A DNA stretch of 64,000 nt from a virus. Its lineage: Duplodnaviria > Caudoviricetes. A program made the position numbers and the translations under genes. The notes under the pieces are model-generated. The model saw only the letters and a program-made list of their open reading frames with translations. It ran no database searches and was not told where the DNA came from. The stretch is from IMG/VR virus record IMGVR_UViG_3300020037_004820; one strand, written 5' to 3'. This document shows, piece by piece, positions 6,876-47,120 of this stretch (position 1 is the stretch's first letter; each line of letters starts with the position of its first letter).

Positions 6876-6938
6876 GGCTCGGTCAAGCATGGCATGGTCA
6901 TTGCATGGCCTTGACAAGCGCTTGACCGAGCCTATCCT
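6876..6938 (+). promoter_or_regulatory. Composite promoter island: sigma54-type site plus TTGACA-N16-TATCCT, with 13-bp inverted repeat
   Basis: TGGCATGGTCATTGCA 6890-6905; TTGACA 6911; TATCCT 6933; GGCTCGGTCAAGC/GCTTGACCGAGCC; near-copy at 9871. Confidence 0.65.
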
Positions 6939-6978
6939 TCATATAGCGTGGCAAACCATCTGTTTCGGAGGAAACTCT

Positions 6979-7191
6979 ATGTCAGACAAGACTCATTATT
7001 ATGAAGTTCGAAAGAATGGGTCATGGACCTTTGGTTTTCTAAAGGCTTCTACTGATTCTGAGGCAATCGAACGACTTGCTCAGGATGAAGTAGGTTTTTT
7101 GCAAAGGTTGGACAATGAAGTCACCCTTATTGATAAAGGCGAAACGGAATGGGCAACCCGTGATTCGGAGGATAAAGATGTCTCAAACTGA
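6979..7191 (+). CDS. Hypothetical protein
   Basis: ATG after GGAGG SD, downstream of promoter island. Confidence 0.7.
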   Translation: MSDKTHYYEVRKNGSWTFGFLKASTDSEAIERLAQDEVGFLQRLDNEVTLIDKGETEWATRDSEDKDVSN

Positions 7192-7336
7192 AAAGGTTTT
7201 TGGCATTCCAAGTTCTAAAGCGGTTGTAGTGAAAAAAGATCAAAAAGGTGATCCAGTTATTATCCGATATGGAGATCCAGATTTTCCAGCTACTGAGCCC
7301 AATCCTTGGCATCCTAAAAAGAAGGATAACATATGA
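7178..7336 (+). CDS. Small hypothetical protein
   Basis: GGAGG SD; overlaps neighbours. Confidence 0.6.
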   Translation: MSQTEKVFGIPSSKAVVVKKDQKGDPVIIRYGDPDFPATEPNPWHPKKKDNI

Positions 7337-7632
7337 GTCAGAAAAATATGTGTCAATTGAGAAAGTTTCCAATTGGAGCTACGTTTCAAGCTCTAAACAT
7401 GGACGATGAATTTACAGTTTTTCATGTAGCAAAATCTGGAAAGTTTAGAACTGATGGACTTATAGAGTGTAAATCTGTTGTTCGCTATAACGTCTTCTCC
7501 AAAGAATGGAACGAATGCACAAGTTACACAACTTATATACATCCTACTACAGAAGTCGAAGTAGTAGAAGTAATTATTACTAAGATCAAAGTTGTTCCTG
7601 CTAACACTTTTTGCGCGGTTAACTCACAATGA
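7333..7632 (+). CDS. Hypothetical protein
   Basis: ORF in coupled run. Confidence 0.7.
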   Translation: MSQKNMCQLRKFPIGATFQALNMDDEFTVFHVAKSGKFRTDGLIECKSVVRYNVFSKEWNECTSYTTYIHPTTEVEVVEVIITKIKVVPANTFCAVNSQ

Positions 7633-7847
7633 CCAAGAAAGAATTGATCGAAGCTCTTTCAAATTTTTCTGATGATACTATTATTGTTGTTCCTAACAAT
7701 TATAATGATGGAATGGACGGTGTAAAATGTCTTTTAAAAGCCTTTGTAAAAGAAGTAAAGTATAAAACAGAATATATGGGTCACTATGAAGAAGTATTAG
7801 ATGGACAATTGGTTTGTTTTATCTCTCCAGAATATGAGGTAGGATAA
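7629..7847 (+). CDS. Hypothetical protein
   Basis: ATGA overlap; MTKKELIEAL N-terminus common in small phage proteins. Confidence 0.7.
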   Translation: MTKKELIEALSNFSDDTIIVVPNNYNDGMDGVKCLLKAFVKEVKYKTEYMGHYEEVLDGQLVCFISPEYEVG

Positions 7848-8092
7848 TGCAATTAGTCAAAGGCGATTTGATTAGACTTATTGGTCCTATTAGTTTATAT
7901 TTAGGAGAAGTTGCTTATTTTGAAGAATTTTGGGATCGACGGACTACGAGCGGGCGCTCTACGCGTGCTCTCCTTAAGAAAGGATGCAATATTTCACTTT
8001 ATAAAGGACCAGTTGATTTATCACGAAAACCTGAAAAAGCAGATATGTTTGTATTTTATCATGAATATTTCCCAATTGGGAGTAAAGAATGA
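7847..8092 (+). CDS. Hypothetical protein
   Basis: TAATG coupling, SD. Confidence 0.6.
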   Translation: MQLVKGDLIRLIGPISLYLGEVAYFEEFWDRRTTSGRSTRALLKKGCNISLYKGPVDLSRKPEKADMFVFYHEYFPIGSKE

Positions 8093-8703
8093 AACTTCTA
8101 GGAAGAATTCCCAATAAAGTTGCAATTGCATTTTCTGGGGGAATTGATTCTGTTGTTGTTGCGCATTTTTTGATGCAATCTAAACGGGAAGTTAGTCTTT
8201 TGTACTTTAACCATGGCACTGATCATGGTAATGATGCAGAAGAATTCGTTTTCAAGTTTGCAGAAGATAATCAAGTAGGCTTGTTGTCGTTTAATATTTC
8301 AAATTATCCTCCAAGACCTGATGATTCTTCTCCTGAAGAATGGTGGCGACTCTGTAGATATGATTTTTTGGAAGGACATATCGATCCAATTATTACTTGT
8401 CATCACTTGGATGACCAAGTTGAAACATGGTTGTTTTCTGCTATGCACAATTATCCTAAACTTATTCCTTATCGCAGAAACAACATCATTCGACCATTTC
8501 TTCTGACAAAGAAATCTGAAATCCATGCATATGCAGCAAAACATAAGCTGTCATGGATTCAAGATGAATCAAATTCCGATGTGAACTATCCTAGAAATAG
8601 GATTAGACACAATATAGTCCCCGAAGCGTTGAAGATCAATCCTGGTCTTCATAAAGTAATTGCTCGTAAAGTAGAAGAGGAATACAATGTCAAAGAAATC
8701 TAA
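8089..8703 (+). CDS. tilS: tRNA(Ile)-lysidine synthase, catalytic PP-loop domain only
   Basis: AFSGGIDS PP-loop, FNHG, HHLDDQVET, IIRPFL, DESN...RNRIRH motifs. Confidence 0.92.
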   Translation: MKLLGRIPNKVAIAFSGGIDSVVVAHFLMQSKREVSLLYFNHGTDHGNDAEEFVFKFAEDNQVGLLSFNISNYPPRPDDSSPEEWWRLCRYDFLEGHIDPIITCHHLDDQVETWLFSAMHNYPKLIPYRRNNIIRPFLLTKKSEIHAYAAKHKLSWIQDESNSDVNYPRNRIRHNIVPEALKINPGLHKVIARKVEEEYNVKEI

Positions 8704-8980
8704 GAAAGCCGCCAGTGAAATGAAGCGTCGCAAGAAGGCTTCGGAAAAGTCTGCGCAGCGCGCCAAGTACGAATCGTATAGAGATTCAGGAAAGAACTCA
8801 AAGTCTAAGCGTTTTCTGAGCAAGGTTAAAGATTATAGCAAGATGAGAGCACATACTCATCCTCATGGACATTGTGGAAACATTGGTTGTAAAAAGTGTA
8901 ATCCGAAGTATAATATTCCAGAACTTCTGGCTACTGTAAAGGGATGGGATAATATCAACTATGCACACTTTGATTGTTAA
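8687..8980 (+). CDS. Small, very basic protein with His/Cys metal-binding cluster
   Basis: K/R-rich N-terminus; HPHGHCGNIGCKKC. Confidence 0.7.
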   Translation: MSKKSKKAASEMKRRKKASEKSAQRAKYESYRDSGKNSKSKRFLSKVKDYSKMRAHTHPHGHCGNIGCKKCNPKYNIPELLATVKGWDNINYAHFDC

Positions 8981-9173
8981 TCAGGTAATTGATAATTACA
9001 CTTCTTATCAAAGAAAGAGCAAAAGGGTTTCTGATCTTCATAAAGAATTATCAGGTACTTGTATTCTTCAACGGTTTATAGAAGCTCAAAATGAATATAC
9101 GATAGCTGCGAAAGAAAAAGAAGAAGCTCTAGCCACGCTGTTATGTTCAATAGAACAGCTTAAGTCAATTTAA
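8961..9173 (+). CDS. Hypothetical protein
   Basis: ORF in run. Confidence 0.55.
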   Translation: MHTLIVNQVIDNYTSYQRKSKRVSDLHKELSGTCILQRFIEAQNEYTIAAKEKEEALATLLCSIEQLKSI

Positions 9174-9242
9174 TGAAGATTAGATCTAAATCTTTTATGC
9201 GTCAAATACTGCAATCTGCCAATTTCGGAAGGATGTGTAACT

Positions 9243-9509
9243 ATGTTCTCTCTGCTTAAGAGAATGTTCCTTTGGGGATTCGATACTCGGGGACATTACT
9301 ATGTCCTTAATTTAGGAATGTGTGCAATTGCTGTCGTTGTTTCGGCAATATTCTTGCCACAATATTTTCAAGATGCTATTAAGCAAGGTAGCGGTTTAAT
9401 GTACTTTATGATGTATATAGATGGTTATATCTATGTAGATAATTTGTATGAACTATATCTGTTCAATAAACAATGGAAAAATCGTGAAAATCAGAGAATT
9501 AATTACTGA
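9243..9509 (+). CDS. Hypothetical membrane protein
   Basis: Hydrophobic segment LGMCAIAVVVSAIFL. Confidence 0.55.
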   Translation: MFSLLKRMFLWGFDTRGHYYVLNLGMCAIAVVVSAIFLPQYFQDAIKQGSGLMYFMMYIDGYIYVDNLYELYLFNKQWKNRENQRINY

Positions 9510-9870
9510 AACCTTGGCAAAGAAAGATATCCATTGGACTTCAATTCATAAATTTTTAGAAGAATTTGGTCAATATAGTTATCCATCTATTGATCAACAT
9601 GAAGATTTAAAGTGTTATGCTATTCATACTTGGGTGTGTACAGATACTTTAGTAGGATACTTTTTATATACGTTCAAAGATGAACCTTGTTGCATTACAT
9701 CGCAAACAGGTAGAAAAAATGATGTTTATTTTCATTGGATCTCAGAAGAGAAATATTTTGAAGTTTTGAAGTTTTGTCTACAATTTGTGCAACCTGAAAA
9801 GCCTTTTATATCAACTTTTGATCTAGATGCAGAAGATGAAACATTAGTAGACAAATATTATTTGCGCTAA
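9448..9870 (+). CDS. Hypothetical protein
   Basis: ORF with WVCTDTLVG segment; true start may be internal. Confidence 0.65.
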   Translation: MNYICSINNGKIVKIRELITETLAKKDIHWTSIHKFLEEFGQYSYPSIDQHEDLKCYAIHTWVCTDTLVGYFLYTFKDEPCCITSQTGRKNDVYFHWISEEKYFEVLKFCLQFVQPEKPFISTFDLDAEDETLVDKYYLR

Positions 9871-9922
9871 GCATGGCACGGTCATTGCATGGCCTTGACC
9901 CATGCCATGCCGTGCATACGCT
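9871..9922 (+). promoter_or_regulatory. Composite promoter island upstream of sigma gene: sigma54 consensus site plus TTGACC-N16-TACGCT
   Basis: TGGCACGGTCATTGCA 9874-9889 matches TGGCACGN4TTGCW; TTGACC 9895; TACGCT 9917. Confidence 0.65.
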
Positions 9923-9965
9923 TGCTATAGCGTGATAAGTGGCTTTGTCAACATAAAGGAACCAC

Positions 9966-10799
9966 ATGGACAATTCAGAGCTTAATGCATTTGTTGTTGA
10001 GATTCAATCTGAATTTCAAGAGACGAAAATCTTCAATAAACAGAAGATGGAAACTCTTTGGAAGGAATTCAAGCCGCTCATCGATAAGCTTTCGTACCAT
10101 AAGTCTGTTAAGACTGGTGGGCAGCATAAGAATGATCTTGTGCAGGTTTGTTATTTGGGTCTTTGTGATGCGGTACGAAAGTATCAAATTGCCAAGATTG
10201 ATTTTAAGAAGTATGCAGTGATTTGGTTCATGGCATATATTCGTCTGGAAAACATTCGAAATGTTTCTATTTTTCGATATTCATCGAGAATGGATCGTAA
10301 ACTCTTTGGAAAGGTATCTCAGGTATCAAACCTTCCTTTGGATGAGCAAGCTGTTATTCTCGGAGTTTCCACAGAAGATTTGGCGGCTTTCCTGCTGTCA
10401 ACTAAGGTAACGAAATCTATTCTTAAGAAGCGATCTGAAGATTCCGATCTGGAAGAAGAAGAATTCATTACGTCGGATTATCCTCAACCAGATTTTCTCT
10501 TTGATGTCAAGGTTATTTATGAGGCTTCGAAAGAAGTATTTGATGATTTTGCAGAATCGTTGGAGACTGATAGAGAGAAAGCAGTTTTGGAACTTCTTCG
10601 TCGTGTTGGTCCTCCTTCGAAGGGAAATTTCAAGGAAGATCCGACTGATACTCTTCCTCAAACCTATCAAGATTTGGCGGATATTTACGGGGTTTCTCGT
10701 GAACGTATTCGTCAGATATCCAAGATGTTGACGGATAAACTTCGTTATCGCTTGGAAAAGAATGGTGTTAGTGCGAGTGCTTATCATGCCTTTATCTAA
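9966..10799 (+). CDS. Sigma70-family RNA polymerase sigma factor (RpoH/RpoD-like)
   Basis: Region 2-like DLVQVCYLGLCDAVRKY..FKKYAVIW; region 4.2 HTH TYQDLADIYGVSRERIRQI. Confidence 0.9.
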   Translation: MDNSELNAFVVEIQSEFQETKIFNKQKMETLWKEFKPLIDKLSYHKSVKTGGQHKNDLVQVCYLGLCDAVRKYQIAKIDFKKYAVIWFMAYIRLENIRNVSIFRYSSRMDRKLFGKVSQVSNLPLDEQAVILGVSTEDLAAFLLSTKVTKSILKKRSEDSDLEEEEFITSDYPQPDFLFDVKVIYEASKEVFDDFAESLETDREKAVLELLRRVGPPSKGNFKEDPTDTLPQTYQDLADIYGVSRERIRQISKMLTDKLRYRLEKNGVSASAYHAFI

Positions 10800-11157
10800 A
10801 AAATTTCAAGAGCACTTGACTATGGTTAAAAATAGTCAAGTGCTTTATATTTGGGATAAACCTTTAAAGGTTATGGATATTTGGTATTCTGAAACAGAAG
10901 ATGCTGCATCAGTAGAACTTCATACAGAGTGTGGAAATGTCGGATATTTAGTTTCCGACATTTTTCTTTTAAGTTCCGCGATTAAACCACGCGGAGGTTT
11001 ACATTCAACTAAATCTTCTGAATATATGAATCGTCATATTCAAACGTGGTGTTTGAACCAACAATTTGCATATGACAATGGACTTGAATTCGACAATACT
11101 ACGAAAGATTATAGTTATCATATAAATGATTATTACTTCAAGAAATATGGAGTATAA
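10786..11157 (+). CDS. Hypothetical protein
   Basis: ORF in run. Confidence 0.6.
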   Translation: MPLSKKFQEHLTMVKNSQVLYIWDKPLKVMDIWYSETEDAASVELHTECGNVGYLVSDIFLLSSAIKPRGGLHSTKSSEYMNRHIQTWCLNQQFAYDNGLEFDNTTKDYSYHINDYYFKKYGV

Positions 11158-11397
11158 ATGAATTGGGAAATAAGTTGGTCATTTTCTATAGGCCAAATTG
11201 ATTTTGAAACAACAGCAGTTATGAATGCGGTTACAGCTACGGATGCAGTAACTAAATTTATACAACTAATGGCTACGGAATTCCCTGAGTATAATTGGGA
11301 AAAACAGATATTTCGTGCCGAAAAGAATTACACATGTTTTCTTTTTATTCTAGAGAAAGGAAAATTGAGAAGACTTGATCCTGCGGAGAACATCTAA
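11158..11397 (+). CDS. Hypothetical protein
   Basis: GGAG SD; abuts neighbours. Confidence 0.6.
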   Translation: MNWEISWSFSIGQIDFETTAVMNAVTATDAVTKFIQLMATEFPEYNWEKQIFRAEKNYTCFLFILEKGKLRRLDPAENI

Positions 11398-12140
11398 TGA
11401 GAGCACTTATTTGTTCCGATTTGCATATTGATGCAGGACATAGACAAGATCCTGATTGGTATGTTGATCCTTCTCTATTTGATGTTGCATTTGTATTAGG
11501 AGATATATCTGATCATGCTAAAACATCTCTGCGTTATATGCGTAAATTTAAAGAGAAAGTTCTTAGCGGTAAACAAGTATTTGTTATTGCGGGTAATCAT
11601 GATCGCTGGGGAAGTTTGTTTAGTTCCTCGGAATATTTTCTAAAACAAATTCCTGGCTTTATAAATCGAGAAGTTGTTGAATATGAAGGTCAAAGAATTT
11701 TGGGCTGTACTCTTTGGTATGAACCTGCTGAGAACGCAGAAAGAAAAGATTGGAGAGATTTTCGATATATTACTGATTGGAAGCAAATTTATCAAGAACA
11801 TAAGTTGGATATGAAATTTCTTGATGAAAATCTTCAAGAAGGAGATATTGTATTAACTCATGTTCTTCCTACTTTGGAATCAATATCCCCACAATGGGTA
11901 TCTGACCCTCACAACAATTATTATGTTGTAGAAATTGGTGCGCTTATTAAGGAAAGAAAACCCAAACTTTGGTGCATGGGGCATTCCCATGAGCCCATAA
12001 TAAAAATGGTGCATAATACTCTTATGCTACGTAATCCTCGGGGGTATCCTGGGGAACTTTCTAATTTTTGCATGTGGATTGTAGATACTGATCGACTTCA
12101 TGAATATGATTCTATTATGGGAATTAATCCCTATGTCTAA
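11397..12140 (+). CDS. Calcineurin-like metallophosphoesterase
   Basis: SDLH, GD, GNHD, THVLP, GHSH and NPRGY motifs. Confidence 0.9.
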   Translation: MRALICSDLHIDAGHRQDPDWYVDPSLFDVAFVLGDISDHAKTSLRYMRKFKEKVLSGKQVFVIAGNHDRWGSLFSSSEYFLKQIPGFINREVVEYEGQRILGCTLWYEPAENAERKDWRDFRYITDWKQIYQEHKLDMKFLDENLQEGDIVLTHVLPTLESISPQWVSDPHNNYYVVEIGALIKERKPKLWCMGHSHEPIIKMVHNTLMLRNPRGYPGELSNFCMWIVDTDRLHEYDSIMGINPYV

Positions 12141-12254
12141 ACAAGCTCTTAAATCGTATGTAGAAGCTCTTAAAGCTTTAGTAGCTATTTTATTAGTCAG
12201 TATACTAACTGTTTTATTTGGACTATTAGTTAGACAATGTACTTGGGGGAATAA

Positions 12255-13394: not shown

Positions 13395-13834
13395 TGAATT
13401 TAGGTACAGGTGATGTAATCATATTGCGCAATAGACAATATGATATAGCTCCCGAATATATTAAAAATCTTGGTTGGGAATTAGGAAGACAAGATGCTTT
13501 ATATGTGAAAGCTAAAATATCAATCCCAACTTGTTTGTTGAAAGAAATATCAGATGTGTTTATACAGTACGCAGCCCTTGATACTTGGCATATAAAGGTT
13601 CAATCTTCTATTCCTTTGCATTGTGATCCTGTTACGGATTGTTCGCATTATAGATTCAATGTCTCGTATAAAGGTGATTATTGGTTGAATGTTGAAGATT
13701 CAACATATCTTATAAAAGAAGGTGATGCAGTTTTATTTAGATCGGATATTAGTTTACACGGAATTGATCTTTTTGAAAATAATATTGTCGAAATCTTTTC
13801 TGTAGGTATATTTATTGGACGAGATAACTCATGA
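13394..13834 (+). CDS. Putative 2OG-Fe(II) oxygenase/cupin-like protein
   Basis: PLHCD (HxD) ... GDAVLF ... LHG distal His. Confidence 0.55.
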   Translation: MNLGTGDVIILRNRQYDIAPEYIKNLGWELGRQDALYVKAKISIPTCLLKEISDVFIQYAALDTWHIKVQSSIPLHCDPVTDCSHYRFNVSYKGDYWLNVEDSTYLIKEGDAVLFRSDISLHGIDLFENNIVEIFSVGIFIGRDNS

Positions 13835-13895
13835 TTAATCATGCGTCTTGCTCTATGAAAATTTCATATTCGTTTAGTACGAGCCTGGGCGGCAT

Positions 13896-13952
13896 TGCAA
13901 GCAGCGTGCCAAAGAAAACGGCCCTTGTCTAGTCGTCCACCGTCGTTATGGT
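13896..13952 (+). promoter_or_regulatory. Promoter island: inverted sigma54-type site plus TTGTCT-N16-TATGGT
   Basis: 13896-13911 reads TGGCACGCTGCTTGCA on the - strand; TTGTCT 13925; TATGGT 13947. Confidence 0.6.
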
Positions 13953-14021
13953 GTGAGTGTGAGGGCGACACGGTGTCGCCCGAAACAATCAAGTGGCTGA
14001 TATAGATATAGGGGTCTTACG

Positions 14022-14384
14022 ATGGCAATTCCCGCCCATGTTCGTTCATTTGCTTCGGTTTCGAATCGCCGCATGGAAAAGCTGAATGGTAAGGACTTCG
14101 ATAAGAAGTCGCATTACATTCATGTTCGTCCGGCAGATCAGGCGGATATTTTGGTTCTCGCAGTTCATGGGGACAATAATGACCCGGATATTTGCGATAC
14201 GGCGCGATTCATCGCTATGAATCCTCGATATGCCGCTATTCTGGCGGTTACGATCGAAGATGTCCTTCGAAACGATCTGAATTTCAACTTCGATAAGGTT
14301 CGTAAGGAGACGTTGAAGCGTCTCGCGAAGAAGTACGAACCTGTTTCGGATGCACAGGAACAGCCGGTTGCGGAAGCTGGCTAA
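14022..14384 (+). CDS. Hypothetical protein with GC-richer codon usage; first gene before the RNA cluster
   Basis: 120-aa ORF after promoter island. Confidence 0.75.
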   Translation: MAIPAHVRSFASVSNRRMEKLNGKDFDKKSHYIHVRPADQADILVLAVHGDNNDPDICDTARFIAMNPRYAAILAVTIEDVLRNDLNFNFDKVRKETLKRLAKKYEPVSDAQEQPVAEAG

Positions 14385-14397
14385 TATATAGATAATC

Positions 14398-14473
14398 GGG
14401 AGTGTAGCTCAGTCGGTAGAGCACGGGACTTTTAATCCTTAGGTCGAGAGTTCGATCCTCTCCGCTCCCACCA
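14398..14473 (+). tRNA. tRNA-Lys(UUU)
   Basis: Cloverleaf GGGAGTG..CGCTCCC-A-CCA; loop CT-TTT-AA. Confidence 0.95.
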
Positions 14474-17094: not shown

Positions 17095-17265
17095 ATGGCA
17101 ATCGCAATGTTCGTTGTTGCAATTTTTGTTATACTTTTTGCTCTATTTGCAGTTGTTGTTAATGACAATGATGCTCGAAGTGCAAATACACTTGCACTAA
17201 TAGCAATTTGTTTAACATTTGTTCTTTGTGTTTTGGCGATTATCAATCTTGGACTCAGTATTTAA
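17095..17265 (+). CDS. Small two-TM membrane protein (56 aa; below ORF-track cutoff)
   Basis: AAGGA SD; MAIAMFVVAIFVILFALFAVVV..LALIAICLTFVLCVLAIINL. Confidence 0.6.
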   Translation: MAIAMFVVAIFVILFALFAVVVNDNDARSANTLALIAICLTFVLCVLAIINLGLSI

Positions 17266-17266
17266 T

Positions 17267-17647
17267 ATGAGTAATACGTGGTCAAGTCCTGGCCCTGATT
17301 ACTGGTTGTTCTTTTATTGTCAACAGAAGAAAGAAGTCTTGCGCGAAAGGAATAGGAAAAAGAACCTTTCAGGTGCAGGACTTACTGTACAAAAAGTATA
17401 TGAACTTTATAAGCAAAAGCTATGCAATTATTGTGGAAAAGAATGTATTGTTGATATTGTAGATCAAACTCATAACAAGTTGAAGCATAATCATGCAACA
17501 ATTGATAGAGTTGATCCATTGATTGGATATCAGAATTCTAATATAGTTCTTGCTTGCCATTCTTGCAATCAGAAGAAAAGTAAAAAAGAACAAAAGATTG
17601 TAGAAAAATTTGGTAGAAAACCTCGCGGTAACCCTGTAACCGCTTGA
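17267..17647 (+). CDS. HNH endonuclease
   Basis: CNYCG..ATIDRVDP..GY..SNIVLACHSCNQKKS. Confidence 0.8.
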   Translation: MSNTWSSPGPDYWLFFYCQQKKEVLRERNRKKNLSGAGLTVQKVYELYKQKLCNYCGKECIVDIVDQTHNKLKHNHATIDRVDPLIGYQNSNIVLACHSCNQKKSKKEQKIVEKFGRKPRGNPVTA

Positions 17648-17671
17648 CAGTCCAAGCATGGGGCTTATAGG
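17644..17671 (+). promoter_or_regulatory. Promoter TTGACA-N16-TATAGG before tRNA-His
   Basis: Same 16-bp GC-rich spacer class as other islands. Confidence 0.5.
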
Positions 17672-23364: not shown

Positions 23365-23429
23365 CCATATTGAGGCAATGCGCCACGCTGGCGCGGCCTT
23401 GACCCTACCTTGCCAAGCGGAGGCTCACA

Positions 23430-24098
23430 GTGCAAGACCCTGAATATTTCAATATGGAAAAGCGAGAAACTTATCACTTTCATCAAATGGAAAATGATAA
23501 TATAAGTGTAGATAAATTCTTGGAGTCCTTTCATTCGGAAATTCAAGAGTTTCTAATTCAATTAGAAAGAACCCTAGGATTTTATCCCTCTCCTAGAGAA
23601 GTTAATTTTACATATGAAATTGATTATCCAAATGAGCGTGGTTACGATTTTGAAGGTGTGGCCTACGGAAAGTTTACATATAAACATATAGAAGCAGATA
23701 ATGATCATTATCTGAGAATTTCACAAGAGCTTTCTGCAATGAAAGCTTTTTATGCTTGCAAAGTTAAACAAGCAAATGATCTTGTGGAATCTAAAAAGAT
23801 CACTCCAGTAAACTTGATTCAAGAAGATCATTATAAAACTAAGAGAAATAAAGCTCTTGCTCATCTTATGACATTGGCTTTCAATGATTCAACTTATGAA
23901 GCTGTTCTTCGAGAGATAAAGAAATATTCTCCTGAGCAATTGAAAGCTGAAAACGATCAACGTAAAGCGAATGCGAATATTGATCTCGAACATCACATTA
24001 AGGCTCTAGAGCGTCAAATTAGATTTTTGAAAAAAACAGATATTCTCATTCAATATCTTAATGAATTGTATCCGCAATTTGCGAAGAAAGGAGAATAA
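23430..24098 (+). CDS. Hypothetical protein
   Basis: GGAGG SD, GTG start, 222 aa. Confidence 0.7.
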   Translation: MQDPEYFNMEKRETYHFHQMENDNISVDKFLESFHSEIQEFLIQLERTLGFYPSPREVNFTYEIDYPNERGYDFEGVAYGKFTYKHIEADNDHYLRISQELSAMKAFYACKVKQANDLVESKKITPVNLIQEDHYKTKRNKALAHLMTLAFNDSTYEAVLREIKKYSPEQLKAENDQRKANANIDLEHHIKALERQIRFLKKTDILIQYLNELYPQFAKKGE

Positions 24099-29414: not shown

Positions 29415-29442
29415 TTGACATAGGCATATCAGCGCTTATGGC
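29415..29442 (+). promoter_or_regulatory. Promoter TTGACA-N16-TATGGC
   Basis: 16-bp spacer class, intergenic. Confidence 0.5.
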
Positions 29443-32460: not shown

Positions 32461-32970
32461 ATGTCAGATAGAATAATATTTTTAGATGTTGATGGTGTTT
32501 TGAATAGCGATCAAGTTTGTTTTGAAATCAGAATGAACGATATTAATCAAAATGGTTACGGTGGATTTTTTGGCGGAACAGTTACTCCAACACATGCTCT
32601 TGTTTGTTGGGGACAAGAACTTGTTGATAACCTTAGAGAAATTGTAGAAAAGACTAATGCACAAATTGTTATTTCTTCTACATGGAGAATAACTCATCCT
32701 GTAAAACAATTTATAGAAATGTTTAAAATATATGGTTGGGACAATGCTCCAGTTATAGATAAAACTGAACATTTAGGTACTCAGCGCGGGTACGAAATTT
32801 CTAAATGGTTAGAAAGACATTCAGAAGTTAAACAATATGTCATATTAGATGATAACTCTGATATGTTAAAAGAACAAAAAGATAACTTTGTTCAAACAGA
32901 TGAAAAAGTAGGTTTATCTAAACAAGATGTATTGAAAGCAATTGCTATTTTGGAGAAAAATAATGAATGA
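32461..32970 (+). CDS. HAD-family phosphatase (HAD_SAK / RNA-repair-associated type)
   Basis: FLDVDGVLN, IVISSTWR, RGYEI..WL, YVILDD. Confidence 0.88.
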   Translation: MSDRIIFLDVDGVLNSDQVCFEIRMNDINQNGYGGFFGGTVTPTHALVCWGQELVDNLREIVEKTNAQIVISSTWRITHPVKQFIEMFKIYGWDNAPVIDKTEHLGTQRGYEISKWLERHSEVKQYVILDDNSDMLKEQKDNFVQTDEKVGLSKQDVLKAIAILEKNNE

Positions 32971-33331
32971 TTTAATAGAAGAGTTAAACCTAAAACCAAT
33001 TATATCTTTAAAAGATAAATTCGAACAAGATATTCATGCATTTAAAGTTTTAGATTATCCACAATGGAGCACTTTACTTCAATATATATTAAACAAGGGA
33101 AAAGCTATTTATGGGGATAATTTGTTTGATATGCAAATATCTGAATTAGTTGTTTCTCATATAAATGAAAATCATGAGATGATTAGGAAACTAAACCTGA
33201 TAACTAATCAGTTAGAAGTTAAACAGTTAATCAACGAAAATTATCTCTTAATTGATTACGTGGCTGTCGCAGTCTGCAACGCTCCAAACCCCGAGCAAGC
33301 GCTCGGTCGCTATGCAAGCTCTGTGCCATAA
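32963..33331 (+). CDS. Hypothetical protein
   Basis: GGAG SD. Confidence 0.55.
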   Translation: MNDLIEELNLKPIISLKDKFEQDIHAFKVLDYPQWSTLLQYILNKGKAIYGDNLFDMQISELVVSHINENHEMIRKLNLITNQLEVKQLINENYLLIDYVAVAVCNAPNPEQALGRYASSVP

Positions 33332-33388
33332 ATTTCTAGCAGAAATGGGCCGCTTAAGGCTTGTCTGGTCGGGCAGCGTGCATATTGT
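33313..33388 (+). promoter_or_regulatory. Promoter island: inverted sigma54-type site plus TTGTCT-N16-TATTGT
   Basis: 33313-33328 reads TGGCACAGAGCTTGCA on the - strand; downstream part resembles the 13925 island. Confidence 0.6.
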
Positions 33389-33474: not shown

Positions 33475-33927
33475 ATGACCGCTACCATTACTGCCAATAC
33501 CAATACCAAGAAGCTCGCGTCGCGTACTCTCGAAAACATGTGCCTCAAGGCGAGCCATGTTCTCTTGCAGAAGTCGCCGAAGGATCTCGCCGAGTTTTCG
33601 AAGATTCTCGACCGTAGCAAGCGTGAGATTGCGCTCGCTCGCGGTGAAAACTCGGCGTTGAAGCGAGTTTATGCCGTCGAAACCGAGGCTCGATACAACT
33701 TGCTCGTCAAGGTTCTCGGAACTTCGGGTGAAGCTCTCACGACCGAGCGTTTGAACAATGATACCTCGTTGACGCCGGAAGATATTCGCATCTTCATGCT
33801 TTTCCGCGGTGTCAATCTCGACAATGTTTTCTCGTCGGAGGAGCAGGAGATCTTCGCGGATCTCAATGAATCCGATATGAAGCAGAACATCTACCTCGGG
33901 GTGGACTGCACGAAGACCGACAAGTAA
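33475..33927 (+). CDS. Stand-alone hypothetical protein with GC-richer codon usage
   Basis: TAAGGA SD; own promoter island and terminator. Confidence 0.8.
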   Translation: MTATITANTNTKKLASRTLENMCLKASHVLLQKSPKDLAEFSKILDRSKREIALARGENSALKRVYAVETEARYNLLVKVLGTSGEALTTERLNNDTSLTPEDIRIFMLFRGVNLDNVFSSEEQEIFADLNESDMKQNIYLGVDCTKTDK

Positions 33928-40567: not shown

Positions 40568-40655
40568 ACAGACTCTCCTCTTCTGTGTCTATACAGTTTA
40601 GTATCTGTATATCTATGTCTCACACAGAACAGTCTGTTTAGGGACTGTTCTGATT

Positions 40656-40690
40656 AAAAAGAGATTGACCAGCCTTGCGGCTGGTCAATC
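40656..40690 (-). terminator. Strong terminator ending the minus-strand cassette module
   Basis: GATTGACCAGCC-GCAA-GGCTGGTCAATC-TCTTTTT on - strand. Confidence 0.85.
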
Positions 40691-40693
40691 ATA

Positions 40694-40858
40694 TTACTTC
40701 TTCTCCTTATTCAAATAACCGTTCAAAGTTTTCTCTTTGATCGATTTGTACATACTATCAGGCACTTTCATCGTCAGTTCCCCATCGAAACCAAAGATGT
40801 ATGCTTTATCATTAACAGTATCGATCACGAGCAGATCAACAAACTTGTTCTCAGCCAT
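40694..40858 (-). CDS. Cassette gene 15, 54-aa hypothetical protein (not in ORF track)
   Basis: AAGGAG SD; MAENKFVDLLVIDTVNDKAYIFGFDG... Confidence 0.7.
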   Translation of the reverse strand: MAENKFVDLLVIDTVNDKAYIFGFDGELTMKVPDSMYKSIKEKTLNGYLNKEKK

Positions 40859-40923
40859 GATAACTCCTTGTGGGCAGGATTGCCTTAAAAAGAAAGCGAG
40901 CCCACCTTTCGGTGGGCGTTTGC

Positions 40924-41235
40924 TTAGCTCTTATCTTTACGATTGTCTTTGGTCCCAGAAGGACCGTTCGTATAGACCAGCATATTCTTGAAGACAGTGG
41001 ATCGATATGCAGAGAACTTCTCTGTATGCAACCATGCGCCTCCAGTTGAATCGATCCTCATCATCGGTCGTTCGAAATGAACCAGATCAGGAAAGCGATC
41101 CCCACGAGTGAGATCCTCTATCTTGACGATGATTGCAGATTCGAATGCACCAGTAAAGGTTTTCACAACGTCACCGACGCTGATTTCATCCATACTGATG
41201 TAATTACGATAGATCGAGGGAATGTTGTCGTCCAC
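40924..41235 (-). CDS. Cassette gene 14, hypothetical protein
   Basis: GGAGG SD, GTG start. Confidence 0.75.
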   Translation of the reverse strand: MDDNIPSIYRNYISMDEISVGDVVKTFTGAFESAIIVKIEDLTRGDRFPDLVHFERPMMRIDSTGGAWLHTEKFSAYRSTVFKNMLVYTNGPSGTKDNRKDKS

Positions 41236-41308
41236 GATAAACCTCCATAGGGATTGAATATCCCTTAAAAAAAAGAAACAGCCCCAGCTTTCGCTGGGGC
41301 AATCTCCA

Positions 41309-41560
41309 TTATGCTAAACGGCGTCTCATGTGCATATTTCTCAGCTCTCTGAGATCCAAAGCGATACGAGCAGAAGCGAGAACTTCGATAGGCTTGCGAC
41401 CTTGCTTCACAAGATCATAACAAGCCTTGACATGCCAATGGTCCATGATAGGGATATAAACCCCTTGATCCGGCTCAGGACAGTCTTTTGACTGAGATTT
41501 CTCCCAATCAATTACCATGAACTCGCCGTTGACCACTGCTAAAAAGTCACAGGTGAACAT
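41309..41560 (-). CDS. Cassette gene 13, hypothetical protein
   Basis: GGAGG SD before MFTCDF. Confidence 0.7.
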   Translation of the reverse strand: MFTCDFLAVVNGEFMVIDWEKSQSKDCPEPDQGVYIPIMDHWHVKACYDLVKQGRKPIEVLASARIALDLRELRNMHMRRRLA

Positions 41561-41831
41561 TGTTCCTCCGGTCGAGAATATCTTGAATAACCTGAAGACG
41601 CTCATGATCGTCGAGGTCAATTCCTTTGCGATCCATTTCATGACAGAGTTCTTCGAGAAGTTCTTCTGCATCATATGGATAATCTGTTGTAAGCAGCTTA
41701 CTTTTCTCTATAAGCTGCTCGATGTCCCAAGCCTTTTGTAGATAGCTTTCACCATCTGCATCTGCTTTGGCATCGTTGAACTCTTCGTCGCAGGAACTGC
41801 CATCTTCGTAAGCGCCATAATCAGTGCGCAT
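41547..41831 (-). CDS. Cassette gene 12, highly acidic small protein
   Basis: GGAGG SD; D/E-rich. Confidence 0.75.
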   Translation of the reverse strand: MRTDYGAYEDGSSCDEEFNDAKADADGESYLQKAWDIEQLIEKSKLLTTDYPYDAEELLEELCHEMDRKGIDLDDHERLQVIQDILDRRNNVHL

Positions 41832-41884
41832 AATGCACCTCCATTAAACAACAAAGCGAGCCCACCTTTCGGTGGGCGTTTGCT

Positions 41885-42151
41885 TTACAGTTGCTTATGT
41901 GACGCCGAAGCCATCGAAGTCTGCTCCATCACATAAGCTATTATCAGGTTCTTGACTGCTTCTCGTTGTGTTCTACCGGAAACAGAACGCCCCCTCCAGT
42001 TATCCCCACCCGGAGAAGGAGGAGGAATATGGAAGGATGCACGCCATTCGATCAGCGGATTGGATTCGCTGCGAAAGTTGTGCTTCTCCACAACTGCCTG
42101 ATACTTGATGTTGCAGATGTGAAAAGTAACAAGCTGCTCGAACTTGAACAT
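41885..42151 (-). CDS. Cassette gene 11, hypothetical protein
   Basis: GGAGG SD before MFKFEQ. Confidence 0.7.
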   Translation of the reverse strand: MFKFEQLVTFHICNIKYQAVVEKHNFRSESNPLIEWRASFHIPPPSPGGDNWRGRSVSGRTQREAVKNLIIAYVMEQTSMASASHKQL

Positions 42152-42227
42152 AATAACCTCCAGTTGGGATGAGATATCCCTTAAAAAGAAAACCCTCCCG
42201 TCTTTCGACGGGAGGATTCTCAATTGA

Positions 42228-43460
42228 TTAGGCTACCAAGCTGAGAACCTTCTGGAAGGCGTCTTGCTTGCCCTTGATGTTGGTATCGAGGAGCAGCCCG
42301 TTCATGTAACGCTTCTCTTCTTCGAGACGCGGGTTCTTGTCCAATCCGTTCACCTGAGCGAAGTGATCGGTCTGAGCCGTCCATCCGCACCAGAGATCGA
42401 ACAAGGTTTCGCAGTTCTTGCCACCACCAAGATCGTCGTTGTAGACGGCCTTGGTCAGAACTGCATCCAGCATGTTCGTCGCTCGGGTAAGACCAGTTTT
42501 GGTCTTGCCGCTCATGTCCAGATCCATCTGGTCGATGACGAACTGCTTGATAATCGCATCACGCTTGTTCTGCGTTTCTGCGATCTTGGTCGATGCCATC
42601 TTCTTGAACACCTCCAGAATCTCCAAAGATCCCACGAGAACATTCGAGAAGCCAGCATGCCATTCTGCCAGGCGAGTAGTGAACATTGCAGTCCGGCGAG
42701 GACCACGCTGACGCATTTTCTCCAATCCCGTGAGCTTACCCCATCCTTCATGGTGAGCATGCGCCATCGTGTTTTCACACACGATGCGAATGATGGTGAG
42801 ATAGAAACTTCCCACCTTGCTACCATCCAACGGGCTGATCACGGTCAGATAAACGCGATGCTTATCCCCACCACGCGGCTCGAACTCACCAAGCAGATAT
42901 TGCACGGAAACAACTCGACCGTCGGACCAGCAATTGCAGCCAGCCGGGGTAACGAGATTGTTCACGGCAATTTCTACTTCATTGATCTCAACATTGGGAT
43001 GCTGACTCTGGAGGAAGTCCAAGACTGCTTTCTGTTCCGCGAAATCGCTGGCCTTGATCGTCACCTCATCGGGGATGATCACGACCTCACGATGCGGATT
43101 GGTTGCATAACTTGCACCCACACCGACCTGAAGCGTAACATCCGGTCGATCCGCTCGAAGCAGATTGTACTGCTTCGGATTGGACTCGATGAAGGTGTTA
43201 TCAGGGAGTTTCGTTCCGGTCAAGCCTTTGATCACATCGAAGTCAGCGCCTGCGCCTCGAACGATGGGAAGCATGGTCGGTGAGAACTCCTTGAGTGAGG
43301 CGCAATTGCTTGCATCCCACCAGCTCGGTTCACTACCCTTGTTGAAACAATGCGAGTTGCCAGCCGGGTCATACGCAAGACGACCGTTATCGGGACCAAC
43401 GCCCTTATCCGAATCCATCTTGGGAGCATTCGCCTGAGCAATCTTCGCGAGAATCGACAT
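42228..43460 (-). CDS. Cassette gene 10, DUF932-family protein
   Basis: SPLDGS..IRIVCENT signature; C-terminal TLFDLWCGWT..DH; AGGAGG SD. Confidence 0.75.
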   Translation of the reverse strand: MSILAKIAQANAPKMDSDKGVGPDNGRLAYDPAGNSHCFNKGSEPSWWDASNCASLKEFSPTMLPIVRGAGADFDVIKGLTGTKLPDNTFIESNPKQYNLLRADRPDVTLQVGVGASYATNPHREVVIIPDEVTIKASDFAEQKAVLDFLQSQHPNVEINEVEIAVNNLVTPAGCNCWSDGRVVSVQYLLGEFEPRGGDKHRVYLTVISPLDGSKVGSFYLTIIRIVCENTMAHAHHEGWGKLTGLEKMRQRGPRRTAMFTTRLAEWHAGFSNVLVGSLEILEVFKKMASTKIAETQNKRDAIIKQFVIDQMDLDMSGKTKTGLTRATNMLDAVLTKAVYNDDLGGGKNCETLFDLWCGWTAQTDHFAQVNGLDKNPRLEEEKRYMNGLLLDTNIKGKQDAFQKVLSLVA

Positions 43461-43560
43461 AGAAACCTCCTATAAAGACACCATGGAATAGTATCCTACT
43501 CACCCTGAGCGGGATATCAAGACACAAAAAAGTGTGCCCCTCCGAAGAGGGGCAGAGACT

Positions 43561-43713
43561 TTAGAACTTACTGCTTATGCGATTCGTCACGTTTTTGGCG
43601 TAACGATCAGACTGAGCAGGTTGTTCCATCTTTTTGGCAGGAGGAGCAGGTTGCGGAGGAACATACCTATCGTAATAGTTCTGCCTCCAATATCTTTCTG
43701 AATAATAATCCAT
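43561..43713 (-). CDS. Cassette gene 9, 50-aa protein (not in ORF track)
   Basis: GGAG SD; MDYYSERYWRQNYYDRYVPPQPAPP... Confidence 0.55.
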   Translation of the reverse strand: MDYYSERYWRQNYYDRYVPPQPAPPAKKMEQPAQSDRYAKNVTNRISSKF

Positions 43714-43715
43714 GA

Positions 43716-44051
43716 TCACAACTCCAACAAGCGAACATTGCCGACCGATCCATCATCCTGCTTAGACCAGCGTTCGGCACGTTTCTTGCCTGAACTGATC
43801 TGAACAACATTATCTGGAACGGTGTACATTCCTTCATCGCCGATTGACGCGCGCTTCGGAGCATTACGGTTCAGAAGATCTGAGAGCTTCAAACCGTAGA
43901 ACTTGAGCACGCGCAACGGTGGAAGGAACGACTGTTGCATTTCCGCGTTGGCGTTGCTGATCTGACCAAGTAGCTCAGAGGACTTCACGATATACTGTTC
44001 AGTGATATCGCTCCATTCTTTGAGAACTTTGAGATCCTTATCTGTTGACAT
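43716..44051 (-). CDS. Cassette gene 8, hypothetical protein
   Basis: AGGAG SD. Confidence 0.75.
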   Translation of the reverse strand: MSTDKDLKVLKEWSDITEQYIVKSSELLGQISNANAEMQQSFLPPLRVLKFYGLKLSDLLNRNAPKRASIGDEGMYTVPDNVVQISSGKKRAERWSKQDDGSVGNVRLLEL

Positions 44052-44128
44052 GAGAACTCCTATATAGGCAGGATTGCCTTAAAAAAGAAACTGCTCCTGC
44101 TTTCGCAGGAGCAATCTCGGTCAGTTGG

Positions 44129-44389
44129 TTAGGCGATACGCTTGATCACAGCCGTATGTCGCACACCTTCTTTGATGATGAAGAAGGGCTTGGTCGCTTT
44201 GTACAGCGTCACAGTTGCGAACAGTTTGAATTCGGGAGCGAACTCCACGAATCGGTCATGGTCGAGCAGAAGTGGAGGAAGTTCCTCACCTTTACGGGTG
44301 TGCGGTCCTTTCTCACCGCTGGCGGTAACCATCGGCCAGAGACGGACCTGGAACATCTTGCCAGCATTCGGATTCGATTCGATCTCCAT
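44129..44389 (-). CDS. Cassette gene 7, hypothetical protein
   Basis: GAGG SD before MEIESN. Confidence 0.75.
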   Translation of the reverse strand: MEIESNPNAGKMFQVRLWPMVTASGEKGPHTRKGEELPPLLLDHDRFVEFAPEFKLFATVTLYKATKPFFIIKEGVRHTAVIKRIA

Positions 44390-44468
44390 GATAAACCTCA
44401 CATAAGGACGGGATTGTCCCTTAAAAAGAAAACCCTCCCGTCCGAAGACGGGAGGATTCCCAGGTTAT

Positions 44469-44804
44469 TTATCCAGCAAACTCTTCGACAGGAGCGACCT
44501 TGACCCAGAGAATCTGAGCAAAGTCTCTCTCTTCGCGGCACACCTCGGCAGCCTGCTTTGCAGAGAAGTAAACCAGCTTGGTCAGCGTGTCACGTCCTTT
44601 CTGCACAGGAACTTCCTCGAAGCAGCGATCCAAGCTCTCGATGCTCGGCTTGTTGACGTGATTGGGAAATTCACGCTCACCTCGCGTCGGAACACGCTTG
44701 TTCGTCCTGAGCTGATTGTGCACATACTCCAGATCATGGTTATCCAGGGCAGTGGCTTCGGCTTCCGAACGAACGAGAGTGATCGCGTAATCGACATTCG
44801 ACAT
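44469..44804 (-). CDS. Cassette gene 6, hypothetical protein
   Basis: AGGAG SD. Confidence 0.75.
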   Translation of the reverse strand: MSNVDYAITLVRSEAEATALDNHDLEYVHNQLRTNKRVPTRGEREFPNHVNKPSIESLDRCFEEVPVQKGRDTLTKLVYFSAKQAAEVCREERDFAQILWVKVAPVEEFAG

Positions 44805-44891
44805 GATAGACTCCTAACTCAGTTTGGGGACGAAATTATCCCTTAAAAAAGAAACAGCCCCAGCCGAAGCTGGGGTGTTCCATTCACTTAC

Positions 44892-45233
44892 TTAGCTCTT
44901 CTTGGCACGGGCCAATGCCTGCGAAGAACGAACCACCGCGTTGTGGAACGATTCTGTACAGGTTCCGTAGAAGAATCGTTCCCAATTCCTCAACGTCGCC
45001 TCTGAATAACCCGTATCTTTTGCAGCAGCTTGCGACGAGAAACCATTCGCCTTATTCAAGCGAAAGAGCTCGACGTTGACACGACGTTGAAGATTGCACA
45101 CATCGTTCGAATAGTCGTTGTCAGCTCGACCACGACCGATGCGCTTAAATCCCGTAACGTCATGCGTCTCGAACGGCGCATCTTCATTCTGGAGGATGGC
45201 GCGAAGGTTCGAACGATTGCTGGGCTTGGACAT
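44892..45233 (-). CDS. Cassette gene 5, putative HTH DNA-binding protein
   Basis: SQAAAKDTGYSEATLRNWE HTH-like; GGAG SD. Confidence 0.65.
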   Translation of the reverse strand: MSKPSNRSNLRAILQNEDAPFETHDVTGFKRIGRGRADNDYSNDVCNLQRRVNVELFRLNKANGFSSQAAAKDTGYSEATLRNWERFFYGTCTESFHNAVVRSSQALARAKKS

Positions 45234-45311
45234 GAAAAACTCCATTGCATAAGATGAGCGACATGCTCACAAAAAAGCAACCCCAGCCGAAGCTGGGGCG
45301 CTTATTGAGGA

Positions 45312-45776
45312 TTAGGCGAGACACTTCACATAAAGTGTCGTCCTCCAAACTACTCTCTCACTGTTCTGAATGTCTCTTTCGAAGTGTTGAATATCGCCGA
45401 AGCGCATCAACTTGCAGACTTCCAAGAGAGACGGCCACCGCTGGCTGATCCACTTTTCGTCCACGTTCTCTTCACAGAGAAGCGGTGCAGTATCAATGTA
45501 CTGCACCACCTTATCCCGACTAACCTGTTCGGGTTTGGCAGCGTAGAAGGCCCATCGCCGACTGTACAAGCCACCATTGGCGGGAAACATTTCACTGACC
45601 GTTTCCAGACTCGCTTCGGGTCGGATATACCGATCCTCCTTCGCGAGCGAGAAGCGAAGCTCCTTCTGAGTCTTGTTCTTGCCAGAACCGGCAGCTTTCG
45701 CAGCCTTCTTAGCACGACGGACTTCAGTTGCGGCAGCTTCACGAGTCGCGATGTCAACCGAACCACCCTTAGCCAT
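45312..45776 (-). CDS. Cassette gene 4, hypothetical protein with Ala/Lys-rich N-terminus
   Basis: AGGAG SD. Confidence 0.75.
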   Translation of the reverse strand: MAKGGSVDIATREAAATEVRRAKKAAKAAGSGKNKTQKELRFSLAKEDRYIRPEASLETVSEMFPANGGLYSRRWAFYAAKPEQVSRDKVVQYIDTAPLLCEENVDEKWISQRWPSLLEVCKLMRFGDIQHFERDIQNSERVVWRTTLYVKCLA

Positions 45777-45848
45777 ATTCATTCTCCTAGCAGATTGGGG
45801 CTTGATTGCCCACAAAAAAGCGTGCCCCTCCGAAGAGGGGCGATTGCT

Positions 45849-46094
45849 TTATACTTTCACGATGCCGAGCGGAGTTGCTGCCATCGTCAGAGCCATTTGT
45901 GCAGCGCTCTGATAACCGCGAACGATTTGAGCACGAACCTGCACGCCCATGCCGAGTTGCATCCCATCGATATCATCCATCGCGATGTCAATGAGTTCAT
46001 CGGCCTGCGCTTTGTTCTGAGTCGAGAACTGATAGATATAGTTCCCGAGGTTGAACGCGAGGTCAGCGATCACCTTGTCTTTCGGATCACCCAT
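45849..46094 (-). CDS. Cassette gene 3, hypothetical protein
   Basis: AGGAG SD before MGDPKD. Confidence 0.7.
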   Translation of the reverse strand: MGDPKDKVIADLAFNLGNYIYQFSTQNKAQADELIDIAMDDIDGMQLGMGVQVRAQIVRGYQSAAQMALTMAATPLGIVKV

Positions 46095-46168
46095 GAGAAT
46101 TCTCCTGTTGTGTGCATGATTGCACAAAAAAGTTGCCCACTCCGAAGAGTGGGCAGAGACTTTAGTTG

Positions 46169-46402
46169 TTAGGCTTCGATCACATCCCAACCCTTCGGAG
46201 CACGAAGGTCAGTGATATCGCTCATGCTCGCAGGAACATCCTGAATTCCCAACGAAACCTTTCCCGACGGGAAGTGAGCCAGCGCCTTGCTGATCGCGAT
46301 GTCATCCTTTTGCTCGGAAAAGTAGAATTCCTGATCGCCACAGGTCGCGACGAAACGGGTGAATTCAGCGCCGAGGACAGTGACCTTGCTATTGTTCGAC
46401 AT
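46169..46402 (-). CDS. Cassette gene 2, hypothetical protein
   Basis: AAGGA SD. Confidence 0.7.
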   Translation of the reverse strand: MSNNSKVTVLGAEFTRFVATCGDQEFYFSEQKDDIAISKALAHFPSGKVSLGIQDVPASMSDITDLRAPKGWDVIEA

Positions 46403-46479
46403 GATAGATTCCTTACTGATAGAGGAACGAAATTGTTCCTTAAAAAAGAAAGCTGCCCCGCTTTCGCGGGGCGCTTCTC

Positions 46480-46881
46480 TCAGGCAGACTGACGTTGATC
46501 GAACGTATCCAATTCAATCTCACGTTGCATGCCCGCTTCGTAAAGCTCATCGTGCATCGCATTCAGCTCATCGTCCAACTCGTCCCGCTTACGCTGGAGA
46601 GTACGGATATGGCTATAGATATCTGCACGAAGCTGTTCATAGCGACGCTCGATATCATCCCGTGCCTTACCCACGGTGAACGCATTGTACAACTCACGCT
46701 CAGTAACATTCATATCACTGAGCTGTTCCTTCACCACGTTCGAGAGATCCTTTCGATGGGACCGCCAAAACTGGCGACGGATGAAGCGCATGATGCCAGG
46801 TTTGCAATCCCGCGAATGCGGGCGCATATACTTGACCTCACTTGCCCACTTGCTCACCTTGATCAAGGTGACCTTATGCAT
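46480..46881 (-). CDS. Cassette gene 1, basic N-terminus plus coiled coil
   Basis: AGGAAGGGAG upstream of MHKVTL. Confidence 0.7.
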   Translation of the reverse strand: MHKVTLIKVSKWASEVKYMRPHSRDCKPGIMRFIRRQFWRSHRKDLSNVVKEQLSDMNVTERELYNAFTVGKARDDIERRYEQLRADIYSHIRTLQRKRDELDDELNAMHDELYEAGMQREIELDTFDQRQSA

Positions 46882-46883
46882 CG

Positions 46884-47120
46884 CTCCCTTCCTATTGATA
46901 GTGGTATGCCACGCAATCAACAACCGACCAGGATAGACAATGGCATGATTAGTGCTTATGTCCTTATCCTATTGACGATCACTAACGCCGTGAATACCTC
47001 TATCAGTCTAAGGTAGTTAGAGCATGGACACTGCGTCCTTACTCTCTCTCCCTTCCTATTGATAGTGGTATGCTACCCAAACATGACGCGCCCACTATCC
47101 ACAATGGCATGAAAGGTGCA
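46884..47120 (-). promoter_or_regulatory. Tandemly duplicated promoter-like unit heading the cassette module
   Basis: 26-bp identical repeat at 46884-46909 and 47048-47073; sigma54-like TGGCATGA..GTGC at 46941 and 47105; both offsets 164 bp. Confidence 0.65.

Follow-up and report, generated by a model that had tools for sequence, protein, structure and literature searches.

Sigma-54-type boxes joined to GC-rich promoter cassettes in a presumed T4-like phage genome

Transcription in T4-type phages has been described through sigma-70, MotA/AsiA and gp55, and to our knowledge YuA is the only published case of a sigma-54 input in a phage. The window analysed here, a whole stretch of 64,000 nucleotides (nt) from the virus record IMGVR_UViG_3300020037_004820 (Duplodnaviria; Caudoviricetes), which we take to belong to a T4-like phage, carries six short boxes that resemble the -24/-12 sites of sigma-54. 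The boxes match the sigma-54 consensus, are enriched over chance and are linked to repeated promoter cassettes rich in guanine and cytosine (GC), and in one pair of paralogous cassettes their two half-sites are conserved.

Bacterial -24/-12 promoters, such as glnAp2, pspG and the rpoH site (PMC4591121), share with the phage boxes the GG-N10-GC core and the TGGCAC...TTGCA flanks, and two of the boxes are perfect. Two boxes, A1 and A2, are also placed as such promoters are, upstream of genes, co-directional with them and at a typical leader distance. E. coli rpoH has a confirmed sigma-54 site 30 nt upstream (PMC4591121), and box A2 stands likewise before the gene of an RpoH-like sigma factor. 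Unlike the bacterial promoters, however, four of the six phage boxes face away from genes, each box adjoins a sigma-70-type promoter, and they are accompanied neither by an activator gene, among the larger open reading frames (ORFs) of the window, nor by a shared upstream activator sequence.

The non-canonical sigma-54 sites of E. coli (Bonocora et al. 2015, PMC4591121) offer a second comparison, as they too are of consensus quality and antisense or gene-distal, and competition with other sigma factors has been reported for them. Many of the E. coli consensus sites are bound but silent, antisense sigma-54 transcripts have been discussed, and a roadblock by bound sigma-54 RNA polymerase (RNAP) at intragenic sites was tested and effectively ruled out, while competition at intergenic sites fits the data (PMC4591121). 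The E. coli sites are scattered in genes and mostly silent, whereas the phage boxes are few, intergenic and integral to repeated cassettes. Non-canonical sigma-54 sites have reportedly been found in Salmonella as well, by Samuels and colleagues in 2013.

The setting of the boxes resembles the PeSL cassettes of T4-type phages (Arbiol et al. 2010, PMC2839356; Comeau et al. 2014, PMC4122927), which are repeated units of about 70-100 bp in variable regions, with a sigma-70-like promoter, a GC stem-loop between or over its -35 and -10 elements and a Shine-Dalgarno (SD) sequence, placed before unrelated orphan genes. Units of this kind were found here in the form of two nucleotide repeats (D12 and D8) and of the alignment of cassettes B3 and B4, together with GC-rich spacers and inverted repeats in A1 and A2. 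The two systems differ in that PeSL cassettes are AT-rich just upstream of the -35, the position at which the phage has a GC-rich box in either orientation, and in that the -10 hexamers of the present cassettes are weak (TAYNNT: TATCCT, TACGCT, TATGGT and TATTGT). Phage YuA has a sigma-54-like promoter, published in 2008 and cited in PMC10914365; as far as that citation goes, it likewise represents a phage genome with a sigma-54-type promoter beside sigma-70-type ones. YuA, a siphovirus, infects a host known to be RpoN-positive, and its site has been interpreted as a promoter, whereas the window has a box plus an adjacent promoter, with the box in both orientations. What sets the present case apart is that one box is joined to a PeSL-like GC-rich promoter cassette, in either orientation, and that this occurs in a presumed T4-like phage and before its own sigma-factor gene.

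Frequency and consensus match of the boxes

The initial annotation had reported the pattern TGGCAY-N5-KTGCW at six positions, and an exact search of the window returned just these six: 6890(+), 9874(+), 13896(-), 33313(-), 46941(+) and 47105(+).

6890..6905, plus strand: box A1, TGGCATGGTCATTGCA, one mismatch to the strict consensus, co-directional with genes
9874..9889, plus strand: box A2, TGGCACGGTCATTGCA, perfect consensus, beginning 3 nt past the stop codon of the upstream gene
13896..13911, minus strand: box B3, TGGCACGCTGCTTGCA, perfect consensus, directed away from the downstream gene
33313..33328, minus strand: box B4, TGGCACAGAGCTTGCA, one mismatch, directed away from the downstream gene
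46941..46956, plus strand: box C5, TGGCATGATTAGTGCT, two mismatches, antisense to a cassette array
47105..47120, plus strand: box C6, TGGCATGAAAGGTGCA, two mismatches, antisense to the cassette array

The six occurrences compare with 0.13 expected from dinucleotide shuffles, 0.17 from 100-nt block shuffles and 0.11 from an analytical estimate based on local composition, and the frequency of the motif is thus not at the chance level. This pattern had been shaped after the sites were seen and is degenerate enough to take in all six; the strict textbook consensus TGGCACG-N4-TTGCW, fixed in advance, was therefore used as well. It is matched perfectly at 9874 and 13896, with one mismatch at 6890 and 33313, and with two mismatches at 46941 and 47105. 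Four sites with at most one mismatch stand against 0.25 expected, and the two perfect ones, which lie in non-homologous islands, against 0.005 expected (P about 1.2e-5), while at two mismatches, the level of pair C, 4.4 matches are expected per window. TGGCA-N6-TTGCA occurs four times versus 0.03-0.06 expected and not once with a spacing of N5 or N7. The sigma-54 core GG-N10-GC is present in all six sites, and in a scan of 128,000 positions with a crude weight matrix the six sites took the six top scores (16.3 for four sites and 14.7 for two, the next best being 13.3).

The surroundings are also as had been described. All six boxes lie within islands of about 50% GC in a genome of 31% GC, next to promoter-like sequences; those at 6890 and 9874 run in the direction of the genes, with 5 bp between the end of the box and TTGACA or TTGACC, and the other four are directed against the local genes. 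The six sites, real as they are, are nevertheless not independent of one another, and form three paralogous pairs, A (6890 and 9874), B (13896 and 33313) and C (46941 and 47105), which on the strength of their sequences amount to two independent strong box families (A and B) and a weaker one (C). This reduction of six sites to three duplication pairs, together with the tuning of the degenerate pattern to fit them all, speaks for the view that the boxes have no function and are chance resemblances in GC-rich DNA, copied passively with a duplicating promoter cassette. Chance alone is, however, a poor explanation for A and B, because there are two perfect matches to the pre-fixed consensus in non-homologous families of cassettes (P about 1e-5), and we consider an absence of function improbable.

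Promoter cassettes of the three pairs

Cassettes B3 and B4 have the same order of elements in gene direction, namely the reversed box, 13 or 32 nt, TTGTCT, 16 nt, TATGGT or TATTGT, GTRAGTGT and a GC hairpin.

13925..13952, plus strand: promoter of cassette B3, TTGTCT, 16 nt, TATGGT, followed by GTGAGTGT and a GC hairpin at 13966-13984
33361..33388, plus strand: promoter of cassette B4, TTGTCT, 16 nt, TATTGT, followed by GTAAGTGT and a hairpin

When the two are aligned, TGCAAGC and GTGCCA are identical, whereas the three bases of the spacer and the flanking sequences are not the same, and the distance from box to -35 shifts by 19 nt. To judge from the alignment, this is the conservation pattern that would be expected of a bipartite -24/-12 element. 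Cassette B3 heads a GC-rich orphan gene (14022-14384) and a tRNA cluster starting at 14398, and cassette B4 heads a gene at 33475-33927 (+); the genes behind the two are mutually unrelated, and the shared unit is therefore a regulatory cassette and not a duplicated gene. The B4-headed gene has about 50% GC in the 31% GC genome and is conserved in 12 relatives at 61-81% identity, and its high GC is thus a stable trait and does not signal recent import.

Both B boxes (13894-13911 and 33311-33328) read (I/Y)ASSVP in the frame of upstream ORFs. The variable triplet is AGC in one and TCT in the other, serine in both cases, and the four flanking codons are identical in DNA. Box B4 overlaps the final codons and the stop of ORF 32942-33331, for which no homologue was found, and the start of ORF 13831-13932 overlaps, as ATGA, the stop codon of the gene before it. 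Part of the conservation could be coding history, which would again suit boxes without function. Against this, the two ORFs whose frame is read have no relation to each other, one of them at least merely runs into the cassette, and the half-sites of pair B are codon-identical while neighbouring codons have changed synonymously and the flanks have diverged. Because the ORFs are unrelated, one is without a homologue and the flanking codons are DNA-identical, we treat the common (I/Y)ASSVP reading as a coincidence, or at most as a second constraint.

Pair A has its boxes and promoters on the strand of the genes that follow.

6911..6938, plus strand: sigma-70-type promoter of cassette A1, TTGACA, a 16-nt GC-rich spacer, TATCCT, beginning 5 bp past the box
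6979..7191, plus strand: orphan gene of 70 amino acids (aa) with SD sequence GGAGG, downstream of cassette A1
9895..9922, plus strand: sigma-70-type promoter of cassette A2, TTGACC, 16 nt, TACGCT
9966..10799, plus strand: gene of a phage sigma-70-family sigma factor with regions 2 and 4 (Pfam)
23380..23404, plus strand: third island with GGCCTTGAC, a sequence common to A1 and A2; no box, and the palindrome GCGCCA-CGC-TGGCGC in its place

A1 and A2 together form the 66-nt repeat D12 (77% identity), with a single base difference in the first 31 nt, and have in common the block TATAGCGTG after the -10, located at 9926-9934 in A2. A 13-bp inverted repeat (6875-6887 and 6920-6932) encloses box A1 and its -35. 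The island at 23380-23404 lies too near a GTG start at 23430 for an ordinary -35. We considered a conserved RNA structure that would include the box and rejected it, because the inverted repeats of A1 and A2 are at different positions; Rfam returned tRNAs only. The nearest cellular matches of the phage sigma factor are RpoH proteins of marine Gammaproteobacteria, at about 30% identity, and its 12 relatives (50-80% identity) were found only as proteins from Logan and JGI assemblies.

Pair C is set in the leader of an array of small genes.

46881..47122, minus strand: 78-nt repeat D8 in two copies, 46881-46958 and 47045-47122, with 78% identity and 164 nt apart
47223-47194, minus strand: AT-rich promoter of T4-early-like type, TTTACA-18-TAAAAT with TG, upstream of C6, C5 and the array
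40694..46881, minus strand: array of small genes with 51% GC, each ended by a GC hairpin and a T-run, resembling a PeSL hyperplastic region

The pair sits between the AT-rich promoter and the first gene of the 15-gene array, in which all genes are orphans except that of one 410-aa DUF932 protein, whose relatives in the Atlas are viral. Each D8 copy has, on the minus strand, the reversed box, then GCATACCACTATCAAT, then an SD sequence, with a gene behind the first copy only. Behind the second copy (47045-47122) there is only a 2-codon ORF, and this copy could be a tandem promoter in reserve or else a small-RNA unit within the array leader. A perfect 18-bp palindrome, TCACCTTGATCAAGGTGA, lies at 46853-46870 inside the first codons of the first cassette gene and begins 87 nt upstream of box C5 in box orientation. 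Among the E. coli sites that are bound by sigma-54 there are variants resembling pair C, such as that of fdhF, GTGGCATAAAAGATGCA. Neither in pair A, as the A1/A2 comparison shows, nor in pair C does the conservation of the box exceed that of its surroundings, a further observation in keeping with passive copying.

These arrangements bear on the possibility that all six boxes are active, activator-dependent sigma-54 promoters, of which A1 and A2 would drive genes while B3, B4, C5 and C6 would make interfering antisense or divergent RNAs. In its favour, A1 and A2 would give rise to leaders of about 63-67 nt ahead of genes with SD sequences; C6 and C5 are oriented towards the AT-rich promoter at 47223-47194; GC elements with dyad symmetry are found 70-87 nt upstream of B3, B4 and C5 in box orientation; and the antisense sigma-54 transcripts discussed for E. 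coli (PMC4591121) provide a precedent. The upstream dyads differ in sequence, however, and are better read as 5' hairpins of plus-strand mRNA and, in one case, as a palindrome within a coding region, and no common downstream feature or terminator was seen, nor any activator gene among the window's larger ORFs. We therefore hold this explanation to be hardly probable, and the same applies to its proposed targets of interference, namely the upstream genes or the face-to-face AT-rich promoter at 47223.

The promoters beside boxes A and B belong to a wider class. TTG(A/T)CN, followed by a GC-rich spacer of exactly 16 nt and TAY, has nine matches in the window versus 2.1 in shuffles. Six of the nine are on the coding strand before genes or tRNA (6911, 9895, 13925, 17644, 29415 and 33361, all +), and in four of these six a box lies 5-32 nt upstream of the -35. 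The other two are box-less.

17644..17671, plus strand: TTGACA-16-TATAGG, 16 nt before tRNA-His
29415..29442, plus strand: TTGACA-16-TATGGC

The reader of this class could be either host sigma-70 or the RpoH-like factor of the phage. A sigma-32-type promoter reading of the islands was rejected, as no CCCCAT-like -10 occurs at a fixed distance and TTGAC-16-TAYNNT fits better. The initial annotation had spoken of early promoters beside the boxes; the neighbours are indeed promoter-like, but they are not of the AT-rich T4-early type and make up a GC-rich class of their own with a 16-nt spacer, for which 'early' is unproven.

The same geometry invites the explanation that the box is an operator, bound by another DNA-binding protein of phage or host that regulates this GC-rich promoter class, and that its likeness to sigma-54 sites is coincidental. 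That the box precedes the -35 in both orientations and at distances that vary (5, 13, 17 or 32 nt) is usual for regulator sites and unusual for promoters, and the box has a partial dyad symmetry, TG..A-N6-T..CA. On the other hand, all four strong sites have the same asymmetric half-sites TGGCA and TTGCA, and a symmetric TGGCA-N6-TGCCA does not exist; by our own count the box centres are not helically phased with respect to the presumed transcription starts; and it is improbable that an unrelated operator would twice reproduce the textbook consensus perfectly at all 12 positions. Nor did any candidate regulator emerge. The product of the B4-headed gene was considered as a box-binding protein and rejected, its AlphaFold model (pLDDT 78.6) being predicted as all-helical and resembling no solved fold. 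The palindrome TGCAA-N6-TTGCA at 17181, the sole such site, lies inside an ORF for a small membrane protein, is probably due to chance and was likewise set aside. We regard an operator of this kind as possible, though on the unlikely side.

Gene content, relatives and host

Most of the window has 29-36% GC, the exceptions being short islands close to 50% GC and a single block of 6 kb with 51% GC. ARAGORN found 14 tRNA genes. Besides many orphan genes, the window encodes a DNA methylase, glycosyltransferases, a CCA-adding enzyme and the tRNA thiolase MnmA. Of 52 gene starts, 44% have an SD-like word in front of them, compared with 12% of random positions. Among the glycosyltransferase genes, at 56645-57289 (+), lies the gene of a 214-aa protein that matches Pfam PF07737, the anthrax lethal factor N/C-terminal domain family, above the cut-off (E 3.5e-7).

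Close relatives (50-82% identity) were found only as proteins, from Logan, ENA and JGI assemblies. A search of IMG/VR gave no relatives for the sigma factor (single sequence and alignment), the B4 gene family (alignment) or the 379-aa neighbour (single sequence), and a metagenome scan at JGI gave distant cellular sigma factors only. The exact patterns of box and block had no match in viral contigs or GTDB genomes. In a cultured-phage collection searched by blastn and tblastn, nothing close was found for the window DNA, the array, the sigma factor, the DUF932 protein, the B4 gene or a 2049-aa protein. We also looked for the host through MnmA, which had no match in GTDB genomes; a search of representatives gave at most about 45% identity beyond one 51% match.

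Proposed sigma-54 docking beside the phage promoters

Taken together, the explanation that we put first, tentatively and with a little less than even confidence, is that the boxes are docking sites for host sigma-54 RNAP, which would compete with the adjacent promoters or add an input to them. On sequence grounds the most economical reader of a perfect TGGCACG-N4-TTGCA would be the sigma-54 holoenzyme. From this we infer sigma-54 binding, an rpoN gene in the host and a regulatory effect. The boxes would be part of small, mobile, GC-rich promoter cassettes of the PeSL type, which make up three families. In A1 and A2 a closed sigma-54 complex on the box would cover the upstream and -35 part of the sigma-70-type promoter, and two forms of polymerase would therefore compete; with the host activator on, the sigma-54 form itself could transcribe the 70-aa gene and the RpoH-like sigma gene. 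The boxes of B and C face away from the gene, with 13-32 nt between them and the presumed -35 downstream, and occupancy, competition or divergent initiation would be their most likely effect, rather than service as a gene promoter. A simple promoter role is disfavoured for four of the six boxes because of their orientation, and docking or competition, with A1 and A2 able to fire, is favoured because so many consensus sites in E. coli are bound but silent. As to the proposal in the initial annotation that host sigma-54 RNAP acts as a repressor, timer or sink, competition at intergenic promoters would agree with the E. coli data, whereas a roadblock was effectively ruled out there for intragenic sites (PMC4591121).

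Several observations weigh against docking of sigma-54 RNAP. The larger ORFs of the window include no RpoN-sized or activator-like gene and no Sigma54_activat domain. The regions upstream of the six boxes have no common motif or activator sequence, and the dyads present there differ from each other; downstream of the four boxes that face against local genes there is neither a credible ORF nor a feature common to them. The match of pair C is weak, and its box is no better conserved than the rest of the 78-nt repeat; a box is absent from two promoters of the same class (17644 and 29415) and from the island with GGCCTTGAC at 23380. Furthermore, some AT-rich aquatic lineages, for example freshwater SAR11, are without (annotated) RpoN (PMC12113158), and an RpoN-positive host of the phage is suggested only by the boxes.

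A bolder version of docking, in which high-affinity closed-complex sites for host sigma-54 RNAP would gate the GC-rich promoter class in cis and in either orientation, including the promoters of the phage's own RpoH-like sigma gene and of the tRNA operon, is in our judgement unlikely. If it were true, part of the phage programme would be tied to the state of sigma-54 and its activators in the host, and a cascade from sigma-54 to the phage sigma factor would mirror that from sigma-54 to rpoH in E. coli. Should another protein bind the boxes, they would be the operator of a regulator of a mobile promoter family. If docking of host sigma-54 RNAP does take place, the boxes would offer an inexpensive marker for host prediction that indicates an rpoN-positive host. 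A T4-like phage would then couple part of its gene expression, that of its own sigma factor included, to the host's enhancer-dependent machinery for stress and nitrogen, and a form of polymerase that binds without firing would serve as a built-in gate.

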